IMG/VR virus record: IMGVR_UViG_2778261588_000006
Span: 1 to 20,988 of that record
Origin: a virus
Taxonomy: Duplodnaviria > Heunggongvirae > Uroviricota > Caudoviricetes
Length of the DNA stretch: 20,988 bases
Strand: one strand, 5' to 3'
Each line of letters begins with the position of its first letter. Position 1 is the first letter of the stretch. Below are positions 1 to 18,877 of this stretch, piece by piece. The notes under the pieces are model-generated. The model was not told where the DNA came from. It made no database searches and worked only from the letters and a program-made list of their open reading frames with translations. The position numbers were made by a program, and so were the translations under genes.

Positions 1-1248
1 ATGGCACTGAATATTCCATTCAGAAATGCGTACTATCGTTTTGCATCCAGTTACTCATTTCTCTTTTTTATTTCCTGGTCGCTGTGGTGGTCGTTATACG
101 CTATTTGGCTGAAAGGACATCTAGGGTTGACAGGGACGGAATTAGGTACACTTTATTCGGTCAACCAGTTTACCAGCATTCTATTTATGATGTTCTACGG
201 CATCGTTCAGGATAAACTCGGTCTGAAGAAACCGCTCATCTGGTGTATGAGTTTCATCCTGGTCTTGACCGGACCGTTTATGATTTACGTTTATGAACCG
301 TTACTGCAAAGCAATTTTTCTGTAGGTCTAATTCCGGGGGCGCTATTTTTTGGCTTGGGGTATCTGGCGGGATGCGGTTTGCTTGATAGCTTCACCGAAA
401 AAATGGCGCGAAATTTTCATTTCGAATATGGAACAGCGCGCGCCTGGGGATCTTTTGGCTATGCTATTGGCGCGTTCTTTGCCGGCATATTTTTTAGTAT
501 CAGTCCCCATATCAACTTCTGGTTGGTCTCGCTATTTGGCGCTGTATTTATGATGATCAACATGCGTTTTAAAGATAAGGATCACCAGTGCGTAGCGGCA
601 GATGCGGGAGGGGTAAAAAAAGAGGATTTTATCGCAGTTTTCAAGGATCGAAACTTCTGGGTTTTCGTCATATTTATTGTGGGGACGTGGTCTTTCTATA
701 ACATTTTTGATCAACAACTTTTTCCTGTCTTTTATGCAGGTTTATTCGAATCACACGATGTAGGAACGCGCCTGTATGGTTATCTCAACTCATTCCAGGT
801 GGTACTCGAAGCGCTGTGCATGGCGATTATTCCTTTCTTTGTGAATCGGGTAGGGCCAAAAAATGCATTACTTATCGGAGTTGTGATTATGGCGTTGCGT
901 ATCCTTTCCTGCGCGCTGTTCGTTAACCCCTGGATTATTTCATTAGTGAAGTTGTTACATGCCATTGAGGTTCCACTTTGTGTCATATCCGTCTTCAAAT
1001 ACAGCGTGGCAAACTTTGATAAGCGCCTGTCGTCGACGATCTTTCTGATTGGTTTTCAAATTGCCAGTTCGCTTGGGATTGTGCTGCTTTCAACGCCGAC
1101 TGGGATACTCTTTGACCACGCAGGCTACCAGACAGTTTTCTTCGCAATTTCGGGTATTGTCTGCCTGATGTTGCTATTTGGCATTTTCTTCTTGAGTAAA
1201 AAACGCGAGCAAATAGTTATGGAAACGCCTGTACCTTCAGCAATATAG
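1..1248 (+). CDS. cscB: MFS oligosaccharide:H+ symporter of the LacY family (sucrose permease-like), host gene
   Basis: 415-aa ORF starting at window base 1; 12-TM-like hydrophobic profile; LacY-family motifs (DKLGLKK, NFHFEYGTARAWG, FDQQLF, GPKNALL, FKY). Recognised from memory as CscB-like, not searched. Confidence 0.8.
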   Translation: MALNIPFRNAYYRFASSYSFLFFISWSLWWSLYAIWLKGHLGLTGTELGTLYSVNQFTSILFMMFYGIVQDKLGLKKPLIWCMSFILVLTGPFMIYVYEPLLQSNFSVGLIPGALFFGLGYLAGCGLLDSFTEKMARNFHFEYGTARAWGSFGYAIGAFFAGIFFSISPHINFWLVSLFGAVFMMINMRFKDKDHQCVAADAGGVKKEDFIAVFKDRNFWVFVIFIVGTWSFYNIFDQQLFPVFYAGLFESHDVGTRLYGYLNSFQVVLEALCMAIIPFFVNRVGPKNALLIGVVIMALRILSCALFVNPWIISLVKLLHAIEVPLCVISVFKYSVANFDKRLSSTIFLIGFQIASSLGIVLLSTPTGILFDHAGYQTVFFAISGIVCLMLLFGIFFLSKKREQIVMETPVPSAI

Positions 1249-5239: not shown

Positions 5240-5746
5240 TTAAATTGCGTGAATAGCGTGACGAGGGAAGGGGAGAGTTACTGGTGCAAAGGGTATATCG
5301 TCGTAAAAATCCATCGGAGGTTCGTTGTGTTGTGCAGGTGATGATTGCTGCTGTGGCTTCTGTGATTGCCTGCTGGCTGCTTGTTGTTTGCTGTCGCCAA
5401 TTCCGCCAAGCATTTGCATCACGCCATTAATTCCGACATGAACCTCGGTTGTGTAACGGTCTTGCCCTGACTGGTCTTTCCACTTTCTGGTTCTCAGCAT
5501 TCCCTCGAAATAAATCTGATCACCTTTTTTCACATACTGCCCCACAACCTCAGCCAGTTTCCCGGATACAGCAACACGATGCCATTCAGTCAATTCCTTT
5601 TGCTCGCCAGTATTTTTATCTCGCCATTGTTCTGACGTGGCTATTGTCAGGTTAGCGAACGCTGTACCTGATGGTGAGTATCGAACTTCCGGGTCTTGTC
5701 CTACCCGACCAAGGATAATCACCTTATTTATCCCGCGAGAACTCAT
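5240..5746 (-). CDS. ssb: Single-stranded DNA-binding protein (SSB) with C-terminal extension
   Basis: OB-fold SSB signature ([20 protein letters not shown]...TEWHRV), Gln/Pro-rich linker and acidic MDFYDDIPF tip; start at MSSRG (5746), overlapping the HNH stop as ATGA. Confidence 0.85.
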
Positions 5747-6210
5747 TTGCTCCACCTCTTGCCAGTTTTTATGTTGCTTATAATTGATTGAGATACACCC
5801 ATGTCTTTTGCTATCTTGTACTGACTCTCTTTTTCAGAGAGTCTTTTCCTAATTTCTATAACCTGCCACTCTGTTAATTTTGCACCATGATGAGCATGAC
5901 CTTTCTTGGCTCCACGATGCCTTCCTTTTGCTATCTTGTCGTCCATGTTTTCTTGCGCGCTACCTAAAAAGAGATGTTCAGGATTAACGCAGCATGGGTT
6001 ATCGCATTTGTGGCAAACCATCTTCCCAGATGGAATGGGGGAGTGATAAAGCTCAAAAGCAACCCGATGAGAAAGCATTGTTACGCCAAAGGCTACAAAT
6101 TTTGTGTATCCTCCTTTGTTTTTTGAATAGGTAGACTCCCAGCAACCTGTTGTTTCATTAACTTTGTAGCTGGACTCGAATCTTTTAATAATTCCGTCCA
6201 AGTGAGACAT
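5743..6210 (-). CDS. HNH endonuclease (HNH_3-type, homing-endonuclease-like) with C-terminal HTH
   Basis: [18 protein letters not shown] motif, His/Lys-rich segment, C-terminal helix-turn-helix-like tail. Confidence 0.8.
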
Positions 6211-6918
6211 TTATGCCGCCTGTTTTAGTTCGTTAACTCTGATGTTCATTACCTGAACGCATTTAGCCTGCGCCTCCTCGTTGCCAGCCATTAATTGCCA
6301 GTCACGCTGATAACGCTCGATGAGTTTTTTCTTGTCAGTTTCTGTTGATGCATAATCGCTGAAGTCTTTCAGGATTTGCTCGCAGTCAACCGATGGAGAT
6401 TTCTGGTTGGTATTTTCTGGTGATGGTTTGTTATCTGATGCTGGGATTGCCCAGCCTGGCAGCGATGGAGGGAGCCAGTAAAATCCTGTTCCATCCTTGA
6501 GTTTTGCCCTGTGCCATCCCTGCTTTTTGTCGAGAGATGTTTGTGCGAAACCTTCCTCAAGGTTATACAGATACCGACCGATTCCCCACTGAACGGCAGC
6601 GCGCTTCATTGCACCTGAACGACCACCTTTGACGGCTTCTACCTGCGTGTTTTCAGCAGCATCCCATTTGGTTACCCATTCGGAATCAATCTTTATTGAT
6701 ATGCCGCATTCAACGCCGCCGTTGTTGGGAATGTCGCGGTATTCATTGCGCCATCCTGCTTTGCCACAAACATCGTCCAGGCGTTTCATGATTGCCCGGT
6801 TCGTGACATAAGCCAGCACCATAGCCCACACCTTGCCATCGCGTGTTTTACCGCTTTGCTGTATTCGCCATTCGATATCTTCAGGGCTGAATGGCTCATC
6901 GAATTTGTTCAAATCCAT
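6211..6918 (-). CDS. Rad52-like single-strand annealing protein (Sak-type recombinase)
   Basis: Motifs AIMKRLDDVCGKAGW and KRAAVQWGIGRYLY resemble the Rad52/Sak SSAP fold; paired with ssb as in phage recombination modules. Confidence 0.7.
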   Translation of the reverse strand: MDLNKFDEPFSPEDIEWRIQQSGKTRDGKVWAMVLAYVTNRAIMKRLDDVCGKAGWRNEYRDIPNNGGVECGISIKIDSEWVTKWDAAENTQVEAVKGGRSGAMKRAAVQWGIGRYLYNLEEGFAQTSLDKKQGWHRAKLKDGTGFYWLPPSLPGWAIPASDNKPSPENTNQKSPSVDCEQILKDFSDYASTETDKKKLIERYQRDWQLMAGNEEAQAKCVQVMNIRVNELKQAA

Positions 6919-9688: not shown

Positions 9689-9734
9689 GCCAATCTGTTC
9701 CGTTTGGCTTCCAGCGTCCTGCTGATGGCTAAAG

Positions 9735-9772
9735 AATACTGTAGGTATTTTATTGTGTAAATACCCAAGGTA
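9735..9772. promoter_or_regulatory. OL operator region: two dyads ATACTGTAGGTAT (9735-9747) and ATACCCAAGGTAT (9760-9772)
   Basis: Same ATAC-N5-GTAT dyad as at OR, centres 25 bp apart, upstream of nutL and N (PL region). Confidence 0.5.
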
Positions 9773-9905
9773 TTTATTTTTGGTGAAATAATGATAAGCA
9801 AATGAATACAAAGGATATTTATTTTTTCGGTGTCTGCTTGTTCAGTGCTTTTTATGCGGGATATGTGAAGTGGATCCCGATAGCTATTGCTGCCGGGATT
9901 ATAGG

Positions 9906-10274
9906 TTAGTCAGCGAAGGTTAAGACGAGAATTACCTTAATGATGTCTGCTACAACAGACACGGCCATAGATAAACCAAAGACGATCCAAGCCACAGTGA
10001 TGTCTTCACTACCATCGTATAGAGTTCCGTAATCACTGGTGTAAGGCGTAAATGTCGCGCCTTGATACAATAGGTATAAGCTTGATCCATAGAGGATAAA
10101 TGCAGATATCCCTTGTATTGCTATGATCACCAGAATCATGAAACGAGCTGATCTATGCGCCCAAGCCTGGCTTATTTTTTCTGATAGAGATTTCGCAATA
10201 AAAGCATGCGCTAAGCCGTAAATTGTCGAGATTGCCAACATCCCAAAAAAGCTTGCTATAGCGGTTCCAACCAT
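9906..10274 (-). CDS. Small integral membrane protein (122 aa, ~3 TM) co-oriented with cI, in the rex/sie position
   Basis: ATG 18 bp after the cI stop with AAGGGG SD; three hydrophobic helices; no family recognised. Confidence 0.55.
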   Translation of the reverse strand: MVGTAIASFFGMLAISTIYGLAHAFIAKSLSEKISQAWAHRSARFMILVIIAIQGISAFILYGSSLYLLYQGATFTPYTSDYGTLYDGSEDITVAWIVFGLSMAVSVVADIIKVILVLTFAD

Positions 10275-10292
10275 AAGCGCCCCCTTGCGTGA

Positions 10293-11009
10293 TCAAACCA
10301 GTCTGAGTTTTGTCTCAATTGCAACGCCTATAATCTTGCAGTTTCCATTGATTGGCACGAGAGGCCATGCAGGATTAAGTCCCTTGAGGTATTTATTTCC
10401 GCCGTCGATTATCAGCTTCTTGAATGTTGCTTCGTTAGAGTCAGAAAGTTTTGCTATGACCAAGCTGCCGTTGATCGCCTCCCTTCCGGTATCGAAAAGA
10501 ACGAATGTTCCCTCTGGAATGCTTAACCCAACCGGTGCCGTCATTGAATCACCTTCCACTTTAAGCCAGAACGCATTACCTTGAATATGCGCGTCAGACT
10601 CAAGCCAAACATCTATGTCTTTAATGGTGTATGGTTCGCATGCTTCACACCACGAGCCAGCCTGGATACTGCTTAACACCGGATACCTCTTTCCTGCTCT
10701 GTATTCCCCTGCATACCTTACGTTGGCATCGCTCTTAAGGCTTTCTGCCTGTTCTGCAACCTTGGCAGCAATTGACTGGCTAAAATCAGCAATTGAGACT
10801 TGCAACAATCGTGCAAAACCAGATGCAACCTCAACGTTTAGCGCGTTTCTGCCATTAAGATAATGCCCTACCGCTCCTTGGGTGATACCCAGTTCATCAG
10901 CGATTGAGTATTGGGTTATTCCCAATTCTTTCTTTTTTGACTCATACAAAGCCTTAAGCCGCTTAGCGTCTTCGAGCTGTTCTGTCGTCAGTGATTTTTT
11001 ATTTTCCAT
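10293..11009 (-). CDS. cI: CI-type prophage repressor (HTH + S24 LexA-like peptidase domain)
   Basis: N-terminal HTH (LGITQYSIADELGITQGAVGHYLNG), EGDSM serine motif and downstream Lys; divergent from cro across operator dyads; no SD, consistent with leaderless PRM-type mRNA. Confidence 0.9.
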   Translation of the reverse strand: MENKKSLTTEQLEDAKRLKALYESKKKELGITQYSIADELGITQGAVGHYLNGRNALNVEVASGFARLLQVSIADFSQSIAAKVAEQAESLKSDANVRYAGEYRAGKRYPVLSSIQAGSWCEACEPYTIKDIDVWLESDAHIQGNAFWLKVEGDSMTAPVGLSIPEGTFVLFDTGREAINGSLVIAKLSDSNEATFKKLIIDGGNKYLKGLNPAWPLVPINGNCKIIGVAIETKLRLV

Positions 11010-11045
11010 AGCTTAATTCTAATAGCTAAGGTACTTAAACTAAAA

Positions 11046-11083
11046 ATACCCTGAGTATTGATTGCTTTGAATACCTGTAGTAT
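11046..11083. promoter_or_regulatory. OR operator region: two dyads ATACCCTGAGTAT (11046-11058) and ATACCTGTAGTAT (11071-11083); PR/PRM
   Basis: Dyad-symmetric 13-mers 25 bp apart between divergent cI and cro; same motif as at OL. Confidence 0.55.
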
Positions 11084-11115
11084 TCTTTGTTCATGGTTAA
11101 TAACGGAGAGTGCAT

Positions 11116-11316: not shown

Positions 11317-11362
11317 CGCTCTTTAACAGTCATGGTCCTCATTCCCGCCGAAATGCGGGAAT
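11317..11362 (+). promoter_or_regulatory. nutR: boxA (CGCTCTTTAACA) + 12-nt spacer + boxB hairpin (ATTCCCGC-CGAAAT-GCGGGAAT)
   Basis: Consensus boxA 6 nt after the cro stop; 8-bp stem with GAAA-type loop. Confidence 0.65.
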
Positions 11363-11418
11363 ACAACGCGCATAAGTTGATGCGCATAACTTCTTATTTG
11401 TTAAGGAAATACTTACAT

Positions 11419-11697
11419 ATGGAACTTACAAGTACTCGCAAGAAAGCGAATGCAATTACAAGCAACATCCTGAATCGAATTGCTGTACGTGGTCAGCGAA
11501 AGGTTGCCGACGCGTTAGGGATTAATGAATCGCAAATTTCGCGATGGAAAGACAGCTTCATCCCAAAAATGGGAATGCTTCTGGCTGTTCTTGAATGGGG
11601 TGTTGAAGACGAGGAGTTGGCGGAACTGGCTAAGAAAGTAGCCAGAATGCTGACAAAAGAAAAAGCCCCGAAGAACGGCGAATTCTTCGAGGCCTGA
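11419..11697 (+). CDS. cII: CII transcriptional activator
   Basis: ESQISRWK...MLLAVLEWGV matches lambda CII core; lambda-like leader TAAGGAAATACTTACAT-ATG; the longer track ORF from 11332 would overlap nutR. Confidence 0.85.
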   Translation: MELTSTRKKANAITSNILNRIAVRGQRKVADALGINESQISRWKDSFIPKMGMLLAVLEWGVEDEELAELAKKVARMLTKEKAPKNGEFFEA

Positions 11698-11731: not shown

Positions 11732-12376
11732 ATGACATACGAAAATGACAAATTCCAGGTTCTGAAGAGCATGAAGGTGCCAGATGATTTTAAATCAAAT
11801 GGCTTTGTTTATGTGCTTTCGAATGAGTGCATGCCAGGAATTTATAAGATTGGGATGACTAAGCATTCACCAGAAGTTAGGGCTAAAGAAATTTCAGCCT
11901 CTACTGGCGTTCCTAAGCCATTTAAGGTGATAGCAGCCTTTCATTCAAATAATCCCGCATCAGATGAAAAACTCATTCATAAAGCCTTTGCAAAAGAGAG
12001 GCTTAGTGATAATCGAGAGTTTTTCAAGCTTGAAGATAATGATCTTTCTGAATCTCTAAATGAAATAAGGGCGCTGGTTGGCCCTGAACGAAATGGCGAG
12101 ACGGCAGAATACGCAATTTACGACTCATTCATTTCTTTTCGCCATGAAAATGAGCTTGATCTTAATGAGGAGCTTATAGAGCAAGGTCTGGGTAGTGTAG
12201 TTGGTCATCTTCCTGCGGTGAAAAATTTCCTTATTCGCGCCGGAATTGATTACGCGAAGCAACTGATAAGCAAATATAACTCATCGATAGTTATTAATAC
12301 AGATGGCAGTGTGGTGATGGTTAAGTCTCTTGAAGCCCAATGCTTTGATGCGGAGGTTGGAAATGAGCCTTGCTGA
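11732..12376 (+). CDS. T5orf172 (GIY-YIG-like nuclease) domain protein, 214 aa
   Basis: N-terminal GFVYVLSNECMPGIYKIGMT...EVRAKE matches the T5orf172/GIY-YIG pattern; CAGGAG SD; stop overlaps the O start. Confidence 0.65.
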   Translation: MTYENDKFQVLKSMKVPDDFKSNGFVYVLSNECMPGIYKIGMTKHSPEVRAKEISASTGVPKPFKVIAAFHSNNPASDEKLIHKAFAKERLSDNREFFKLEDNDLSESLNEIRALVGPERNGETAEYAIYDSFISFRHENELDLNEELIEQGLGSVVGHLPAVKNFLIRAGIDYAKQLISKYNSSIVINTDGSVVMVKSLEAQCFDAEVGNEPC

Positions 12377-13157
12377 AGTATTTTACCTGCCGAAGAGTGA
12401 ACCTGTTGAACAGGAGCGAAGAGTGGCTGATATCGATGATGGTTACACCAGATTCGCTAACGAGCTGCTGGAAGCTATCGCAAGTGCCGATTTAACCGCT
12501 CGCCAGTTGAAAGTTATGCTGGCCTACGTCCGGAAAACATATGGATTCAATAAGAAAACAGATCGAATAGCCGATGAGCAAATTGCTCAGTTAACAGGAC
12601 TGTCAAGGCAGAATGTTAACAAGGCTAAAAAAGAACTGATTTCAATGAATTGCCTGTTTATGGATGGAAATCAAATCGGTGTAAATAGGGAGGTATCTGC
12701 GTGGCAATTCAGCAAGTGTCTCCAAGTTAGCAACTTTGTCTCGAAGTTAGAGACACACAAAAGACATTCTTTAAAGACAAAAGAAAATATTAATAAACCC
12801 CCTATATCCCCCAAAAAAGTTTCTCAGAAGTTCGACCCGCTAGAAACAGAGTTGCCTGATTGGTTATCAGCAGAAATATGGTTGTCGTGGGTTACCTATC
12901 GCAAGGAGATAGGTAAGTCGATCAAGTCTAAGCAAAGTGTCACTCAGGCTATCAACGTTCTAAGCAGAAGTCTGGAGAAGGGATATACACCTGAAGAAAT
13001 TATAAACCAGAGCATCGCCAGTGGTTGGCAGGGTATTTTTGAGCCCAAGACTCCAAAGGGGAAATCTCAACCGAGGCCGCAGCATCGAGCTATGCAGGAA
13101 AACTTTGCCACCAAAGATTACGGACAAACTGAAATGCCTTCATGGGCGCAGGAGTGA
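12363..13157 (+). CDS. O: Replication initiator O-like protein
   Basis: N-terminal domain (RRVADIDDGYTRFANELLEA...LKVMLAYVRKTYGFNK) parallels lambda O; GGAGG SD at 6 nt; iteron-like repeats inside the gene. Confidence 0.7.
   Translation: MSLAEVFYLPKSEPVEQERRVADIDDGYTRFANELLEAIASADLTARQLKVMLAYVRKTYGFNKKTDRIADEQIAQLTGLSRQNVNKAKKELISMNCLFMDGNQIGVNREVSAWQFSKCLQVSNFVSKLETHKRHSLKTKENINKPPISPKKVSQKFDPLETELPDWLSAEIWLSWVTYRKEIGKSIKSKQSVTQAINVLSRSLEKGYTPEEIINQSIASGWQGIFEPKTPKGKSQPRPQHRAMQENFATKDYGQTEMPSWAQE
12719..12800. other. Putative replication origin inside O: iteron-like repeats TGTCTC(C/G)AAGTTAG at 12719 and 12739, then A-rich ACACAAAAGACA...AAAGAAAATATTAATAAA
   Basis: Second repeat is a dyad (TGTCTC...GAGACA); adjacent A/T-rich block resembles the lambda ori arrangement. 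Confidence 0.45.
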
Positions 13158-18553: not shown

Positions 18554-18877
18554 ATGAAGATGCCAGAAAAACATGACCTGTTGGCCGCCATTCTCGCGGC
18601 AAAGGAACAAGGCATCGGGGCAATCCTTGCGTTTGCAATGGCGTACCTTCGCGGCAGATATAATGGCGGTGCGTTTACAAAAACAGTAATCGACGCAACG
18701 ATGTGCGCCATTATCGCCTGGTTCATTCGTGACCTTCTCGACTTCGCCGGACTAAGTAGCAATCTCGCTTATATAACGAGCGTGTTCATCGGCTACATCG
18801 GCACTGACTCGATTGGTTCGCTTATCAAACGCTTCGCTGCTAAAAAAGCCGGAGTAGAAGATGGTGGAAATCAATAA
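18554..18877 (+). CDS. S: Holin S (class I, dual-start S107/S105)
   Basis: [39 protein letters not shown]... is essentially lambda S as recalled; Met1-Lys2-Met3 dual start. Confidence 0.95.

Follow-up and report, generated by a model that had tools for sequence, protein, structure and literature searches.

The gene hkaS, which lies directly behind the cI repressor gene in a 20,988-nt stretch of Caudoviricetes DNA (IMG/VR record IMGVR_UViG_2778261588_000006, positions 1 to 20,988; hereafter the window), is a sequence-orphan accessory cargo gene of a lambdoid repressor operon that has already been catalogued, as HkaS of phage HK620 and as PHROG 6534. By analogy with known exclusion systems, we tentatively propose that HkaS may block the entry of phage genomes at the inner membrane in a manner similar to that of P22 SieA. 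Coordinates of the features discussed are given in Table 1.

An initial annotation of the window had described a 122-codon gene at 9906–10274 that starts 18 nt behind cI with its own Shine-Dalgarno sequence and belongs to no recognized family. The open reading frame (ORF) listing and the sequence itself bore out the coordinates, length, spacing and Shine-Dalgarno sequence, to which we add the minus strand, a point absent from that annotation. The statement on the family also stood, as no above-threshold match was obtained in Pfam, NCBIfam or PADLOC and the only profile matched was PHROG 6534, labeled 'unknown function' (E 2.4e-79, residues 1–122 on profile positions 1–122 of 122). It was missed, however, that the gene had already been annotated as hkaS in HK620. 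In the GenBank record of HK620, the ORF between cI and tIMM/OL3 is named hkaS with the product 'unknown', and its protein (AAK28867.1) has been annotated as such since 2001. The window protein was 99–100% identical to HkaS of HK620, mEpX2, HK140 and HK630. The surrounding 2-kb region was 99.2–99.6% identical to the immunity regions of HK620, mEpX2, HK630, HF4s, HZ41 and phi296/phi367 and 97.7% identical to that of HK140. The gene of the window and HK620 hkaS/PHROG 6534 are the same gene in the same position between cI and OL, with no material difference. The HK620 match supplies a name without a function, and no function for hkaS or for the gene of HK620, mEpX2 or HK140 was found in the open literature searched. 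A chance ORF is ruled out and 9906–10274 is a genuine gene, because the length of 122 aa is kept in nearly all homologs down to 50% identity, the dN/dS is low and the gene is intact in 80 of 80 IMG/VR loci.

Table 1. Coordinates of hkaS, of the predicted segments of its product and of neighboring features in the window.
Feature	Coordinates	Strand	Description and basis
hkaS coding sequence	9906..10274	minus	122 aa, ATG start, stop codon 9906-9908; ORF listing
Predicted TM1, residues 2-27	10194..10271	minus	N terminus predicted periplasmic; hydropathy, charge, AlphaFold2 helix 2-29
Predicted cytoplasmic loop, residues 28-44	10143..10193	minus	short amphipathic helix, 4 K/R, motif LS-KI-Q-W-H--ARF
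Predicted TM2, residues 45-70	10065..10142	minus	invariant Q54, S65, YLLY end
Predicted periplasmic loop, residues 71-93	9996..10064	minus	AlphaFold2 strands 78-79, 85-86
Predicted TM3 and C-terminal end, residues 94-122	9909..9995	minus	invariant intramembrane D110, K113; invariant ILVLTFAD end
cI repressor gene, 238 aa	10293..11009	minus	HTH_3 and Peptidase_S24 (Pfam); cI/LexA-type
cI-hkaS spacer, 18 nt	10275..10292	minus	Shine-Dalgarno AAGGGGG at 10280-10286
Stem-loop	9874..9899	minus	9 nt past hkaS stop; dG -14.1 kcal/mol, z -2.9
OL/PL region	9733..9820	minus	HK620 annotation transfer, promoter and operator scans, conservation across lineages
OL operators, consensus RAATAC-N7-GTATT	9734-9750, 9759-9775, 9804-9820		operator scan
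PL hexamers TTTACA-17-TATTCT	9761..9733		fires leftward, away from hkaS; promoter scan
OR3, OR2, OR1	11020-11036, 11044-11060, 11069-11085	plus	HK620 annotation transfer, operator scan
Phage_holin_3_1 gene	18554-18877		the window's own holin

The cI of the window was 99.6–100% identical to those of HK620 and mEpX2 and is presumably the first gene of an operon transcribed from PRM and PRE. On the coding strand, the spacer between cI and hkaS reads TCACGCAAGGGGGCGCTT, of which AAGGGGG stands 5 nt ahead of the ATG and the AAGG was kept in all diverged lineages. The gap of 18 nt is too short to house a terminator, and no terminator-like site was detected between cI and hkaS by scanning. The G-run of the Shine-Dalgarno sequence varied among 79 prophages (loci L018–L097), which had either AAGGGG or AAGGGGG and spacers of 17, 18 or 19 nt. 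The length of the G-run could tune the translation of hkaS relative to that of cI.

Downstream of hkaS, hairpins of unrelated sequence (dG -16 to -18.5) were found in loci L002, L006 and L008 at the place equivalent to the stem-loop of the window. A hairpin is thus present behind hkaS in four diverged lineages with a different sequence in each. Because same-place hairpins differ in sequence across lineages, they suggest a conserved end or stabilizer of the transcript. A scan for canonical intrinsic terminators 3′ of hkaS returned none, the hairpins there being without a U tract. The hairpin at 9874–9899 is likely the 3′ end or terminator of the cI-hkaS transcript.

The OR region carries PR and, by analogy with lambda, PRM, from which cI and hkaS are presumably transcribed in lysogens. 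PR fires rightward, away from hkaS, according to the HK620 annotation and the promoter scan. Because PL and PR both point away from it, hkaS would be readable only from PRM in the lysogen or from PRE during establishment, following the lambda paradigm. We infer that hkaS is expressed together with cI in lysogens, which is well supported by the architecture.

Scanning of the same region also yielded several minor observations. The site GAATACAAAGGATATTT (9804–9820) had 1 mismatch to the operator consensus and was conserved in diverged lineages. In the HK620 record, the label tIMM stands at this spot and OL3 at the poorly matching equivalent of 9781–9797. The true OL3 is probably 9804–9820, and the hairpin at 9874–9899 is probably a better terminator candidate than the tIMM spot of HK620. 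In addition, two 17-mers within hkaS (10063–10079 and 10104–10120) had 2 mismatches to the operator consensus. They probably occur by chance, as about 0.7 such sites were expected by estimate in the 1.6 kb scanned. A 35-aa hydrophobic ORF on the plus strand (9802–9909), convergent with hkaS and with a 4-nt overlap at the hkaS stop, was rejected as probably spurious, as it was not conserved in diverged lineages: it was missing in the Salmonella and K. aerogenes-type lineages, and an unrelated ORF was found there in the Hafnia-type lineage.

The family of HkaS was small. A word-indexed search of 5.8 billion proteins identified 12 clusters at 90% identity, all of the same family, and 1.84 billion representatives at 50% identity, searched exhaustively with a HMMER profile, yielded one cluster plus a 44-aa fragment. 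The hosts were E. coli, Salmonella, Enterobacter, Klebsiella aerogenes and Hafnia, and the members were labeled 'hypothetical'. No relatives of HkaS were found by a scan of the GTDB species representatives; the family resides in strain-variable prophages. On these searches, HkaS belongs to a very small sequence-orphan family found in Enterobacterales prophages throughout.

Comparisons with known domains and folds were negative as well. No domain in Pfam, the RexB family included, matched HkaS above threshold. The Pfam matches to Cation_ATPase_C (17.6 bits against a cut-off of 27.3) and TssN (sub-threshold) were rejected as noise from transmembrane (TM) composition. NCBIfam had no match, the defence models of PADLOC-DB v2 gave nothing at E <= 1, a sequence profile search of the PDB returned 0 matches at E <= 10, and no match below E 0.3 resulted when the HkaS model was compared by Foldseek with BFVD and PDB. 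The hhalign probabilities between HkaS and characterized proteins were all <1%, that is, 0.7% for lambda RexB, 0.3% for P22 SieA, 0.1% for P22/lambda SieB, 0.08% for 434 Hex and 0.16% for the window's own S-type holin, with HK97 gp15 also in this range.

The association of hkaS with cI was strict. In ~100 of ~100 loci, with HkaS identities down to 50%, the gene followed a cI of this family after 17–20 nt and preceded OL/PL. Among them were 11 loci from Salmonella, Enterobacter, K. aerogenes, Hafnia and metagenomes whose HkaS was 50–83% identical to that of the window. In all 11, hkaS was 17–20 nt behind a cI of 86–96% identity and upstream of OL/PL/N, and the replication, recombination and nin modules around the two genes varied. 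The same arrangement was found in all 79 IMG/VR loci with upstream sequence, and cI and hkaS occurred in the same 16 phage records. Among 5,426 complete E. coli genomes, each of the two genes was present in 146 genomes at 147 places (~2.7%), Stx-converting prophages included. No third gene was found in the cI-hkaS operon of any of the ~100 loci, cI alone being upstream. The dS between the window and the Hafnia-type lineage was 0.69 for hkaS and 0.74 for cI, and deeper pairs were saturated for both. Because synonymous divergence was equal in both genes, these comparisons indicate that cI and hkaS have long been inherited as a unit, and a recent insertion of hkaS is rejected. As a separate observation, the gap between hkaS and N was 656 nt in an Enterobacter/Salmonella lineage (L098, 2870–3524; lineage of P0013), compared to ~350–490 nt in other lineages, and may contain an extra small feature.

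The dN/dS values between lineages were 0.135–0.22 for hkaS and 0.032 for cI. Within the E. coli population (79 loci), they were 0.25 and 0.017, respectively, with 19 synonymous and 23 non-synonymous variants in hkaS and 37 and 5 in cI. The HkaS protein thus changed 4 to 15 times faster than cI. These values indicate that hkaS is kept by purifying selection that is weaker than that on cI. No stop or frameshift was found in hkaS of the 80 IMG/VR loci. The polymorphisms of hkaS in the 79 loci were mostly conservative and located in the TM helices and are therefore as expected from relaxed constraint and not from an arms race. Rare frameshifts within the first ~30 codons were observed in a few alleles of the large protein collection (P0006, P0007 and P0009), with 1–2 members each against roughly 600 intact ones. 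Their gene calls fuse an alternative frame started by TTG (10153–10296 in the window) to the rest of HkaS, by which TM1 is lost.

The initial annotation had also assigned about three TM helices to the protein, in which the hydropathy profile and the AlphaFold2 model concurred. Three Kyte-Doolittle peaks were found, with 19-residue means of 1.64, 2.24 and 2.28. By charge count, loop 28–44 contained 4 K/R (+4), and loop 71–93 contained 4 D/E and zero K/R. Because the charges of the loops follow the positive-inside rule, HkaS is predicted to have an N-out/C-in topology, which places the N terminus and loop 2 in the periplasm and loop 1 and the C terminus in the cytoplasm. The AlphaFold2 model, which was built on a 7-sequence alignment, had a pLDDT of 92 and a pTM of 0.79, with helices at residues 2–29, 31–38, 41–73 and 89–121 and a beta hairpin at 78–86. 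The short, amphipathic helix 31–38 is placed in the cytoplasmic loop. No soluble domain is present in the model, whose chain stops 3 residues past TM3. HkaS is therefore predicted by modeling to be an inner-membrane protein with three helices.

Conservation varied along the protein. Measured as mean pairwise identity across six lineages, it was highest for residues 110–122 (0.82), followed by loop 28–44 (0.71), and lowest for the hairpin tip at residues 80–93 (0.41). In the periplasmic loop, a conserved QGATFxPY precedes this variable acidic beta-hairpin tip. The invariant small or polar residues of TM1 were G3, A5, S8, G11, S16 and Y19.

Similar to rexA-rexB of lambda, where the order is cI, rexA-rexB, OL3 and PL, hkaS lies between cI and OL3 and is co-oriented with cI, which agrees with the rex/sie position originally assigned to it. 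The genes of RexAB, 933W Stk and 434 Hex share a PRM transcript with that of the repressor, and their products exclude other phages (PMC3564112); st313-td lies immediately behind cI in phage BTP1 (PMC5322425). Exclusion is the typical role of cargo transcribed from PRM (PMC3564112, PMC5322425). No gene is present behind cI in P22 or in Serratia phage OS31, whose cI is 71% identical to that of the window. The product of st313-td of BTP1 is the abortive-infection protein later described as BstA. Phage 434 has hex behind cI, and Erwinia phage 49 (cI 65% identical) has a gene for an unrelated soluble protein of 200 aa. The content of the slot behind cI is dispensable and replaceable between related phages. 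By the precedent of 434 Hex, the slot can also carry a lysogeny-stabilizing function.

From these precedents, a defence function of HkaS is plausible, and the reading that we tentatively favor is a block of phage genome entry. As the second and last gene of the HK620/mEpX2 repressor operon, hkaS would be transcribed from PRM in lysogens and from PRE at establishment, and HkaS would be produced continuously alongside cI in the lysogen. Located in the inner membrane, it would stop the genomes of certain heteroimmune phages from crossing, as P22 SieA, T4 Imm and HK97 gp15 do. Its target might be the conduit that the ejection proteins or tape measure of an infecting phage form, or a host factor of the inner membrane on which this conduit depends. 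The lysogen would thereby gain protection beyond repressor immunity. Expression in lysogens, localization and the mechanism of exclusion are here those that we infer from the operon and the predicted protein. An entry block would fit with HkaS having neither a soluble sensor domain nor a partner gene. Moreover, a variable periplasmic tip together with a constraint ~15 times below that of cI would fit an interface pressured by incoming phages. The best-conserved surfaces (residues 28–44 and 110–122) are, however, cytoplasmic and agree no less well with a conserved cytoplasmic partner than with an anti-phage interface in the periplasm. Its strict linkage to a single cI family could also point to a coupling of hkaS with the repressor circuit instead of defence.

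Among characterized proteins, one of the closest counterparts is P22 SieA, a lone three-TM inner-membrane protein that is enough to block DNA injection (PMC10883804). Similar to SieA, HkaS would be a small inner-membrane protein expressed from the prophage by a single gene, with three predicted TM helices and without a soluble domain. Different from HkaS, SieA has 162–164 aa and is encoded outside the repressor operon, with its own promoter, in the late/immI region beside gene 16. HK97 gp15, T4 Imm and Sie2009 are likewise small membrane proteins that block genome entry; among them, the sequence comparison covered gp15 only. HK97 gp15, a prophage-expressed moron (PMC10883804), differs from HkaS in having 62 aa and one TM helix and in its location in the tail gene cluster.

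Besides the entry block, a reading in which HkaS has two roles was considered, although we regard it as unlikely. In this case, HkaS would found a new single-protein inner-membrane family of exclusion or abortive type that is hard-wired to one repressor lineage and also tunes lysogeny. Loop 28–44 and the C-terminal end with D110, K113 and ILVLTFAD would link HkaS with either a host protease or the cI circuit. One protein would thus protect the membrane and at the same time tune lysogeny, which has been proposed for 434 Hex and RexB.

That HkaS acts on the repressor switch and not on other phages is a rather improbable reading. It might dampen the RecA-stimulated cleavage of cI, as 434 Hex does, or modulate a protease of the membrane or cytoplasm (FtsH/HflKC, ClpXP) by which CII, CIII or O is controlled, with positive feedback upon expression from PRE. 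434 Hex, whose gene has the corresponding place on the PRM transcript, reduces spontaneous induction by way of RecA (PMC3564112). Similar to hex, hkaS is a single accessory gene directly behind cI, presumably on that transcript, and Hex both excludes heterologous phages and stabilizes lysogeny (PMC3564112). A role in the circuit would also agree with the cytoplasmic location of the most conserved surfaces of HkaS and with the finding that HkaS is never apart from one cI family, with which it has co-diverged. This linkage, however, would also follow from simple physical closeness of two genes that are exchanged together in one immunity cassette, and close relatives of this cI (62–71% identity) are without any such gene. 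HkaS has no similarity to Hex, which differs in type: it has a signal-like segment at the N terminus and an otherwise hydrophilic body, compared to the three TM helices of HkaS.

Little probability is likewise given to an abortive-infection effector, in which oligomers of HkaS would form a latent RexB-like channel without RexA whose infection-triggered depolarization halts both phage and cell. Similar to rexB, hkaS is the last gene of a cI operon just ahead of OL3, and its product would be a small polytopic inner-membrane protein made in the lysogen. The shared slot, the small, all-helical and polytopic HkaS with invariant Q54, D110 and K113 within the membrane, and the helix faces rich in small residues that would suit oligomerization are all consistent with a channel. 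Moreover, the predicted three-TM, N-out/C-in topology matches that of class I holins of the lambda S type. RexB, which has 144 aa and four TM helices, requires RexA, however, and RexA is missing from the hkaS operon. Neither a gene for a partner sensor in the operon nor a soluble infection-sensing domain in HkaS was found; a channel needs a trigger, and HkaS, being so small, seems poorly equipped to sense one. HkaS also lacks similarity to RexB or holin S, a PADLOC match and the charged cytoplasmic C-terminal tail of class I holins, and hkaS is not part of a late lysis cassette as holin genes are.

A host-fitness factor, acting for instance on envelope permeability or on resistance to colicins, bile or antimicrobial peptides, or a nearly neutral passenger is similarly doubtful: the pagP annotated beside the repressor of phage Huey is a precedent for envelope-modifying cargo near cI, st313-td was initially described as a virulence gene (PMC5322425) and the constraint on hkaS is weak relative to cI, but such cargo is usually found on many phage backbones and is often chromosomal, whereas HkaS occurs in one slot only with no homologs elsewhere among the 1.84 billion representatives, and a neutral passenger would not be retained over saturated synonymous divergence with a dN/dS of 0.13–0.25 and 0 pseudogenes in 80 loci.

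If HkaS excludes phages by the favored entry block or otherwise, it would represent a new, mechanistically uncharacterized, sequence-orphan and single-gene membrane defence, and it would strengthen the position behind cI as a general slot for defence cargo in lambdoid phages. Should HkaS act on the switch instead, it would provide a second case, after Hex, of a PRM-encoded lysogeny stabilizer. Either way the advance is incremental, as both this slot and such cargo are already well known. Given that hkaS is carried by the model phages HK620, mEpX2, HK140 and HK630, it is simple to test.

Some other features of the window were also recorded. A 214-aa protein is encoded on the plus strand (11732–12376) between a cII-like gene (11332–11697) and the replication gene O (12330–13157). 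Pfam assigned it a T5orf172/MUG113 domain (E 2e-15 and 4e-16), and among the candidate defence models of PADLOC it matched PDC-S57 (E 6e-29) and, over the C-terminal part of that model, PD-Lambda-1 (E 1e-11). Located in the PR operon, its gene is a second defence-like cargo gene of the prophage and a better-supported one than hkaS. At the left end, positions 1–1248 (plus strand) encode a complete LacY-family sugar symporter (Pfam E 3e-193), which is annotated as 'sucrose transport protein' in the phage record vB_EcoP-611R6. The following ~1.6 kb (1249–2835), ahead of the early-left genes of the prophage, is without a large ORF and without an integrase. The symporter stretch is either the host flank at the prophage end or phage-carried cargo. 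Finally, a gene on the minus strand (5743–6210) between a Rad52-type recombinase (6211–6918) and an SSB (5240–5755) encodes an HNH endonuclease (HNH_3, E 1e-13) and resembles a homing-endonuclease gene inserted into the recombination module.
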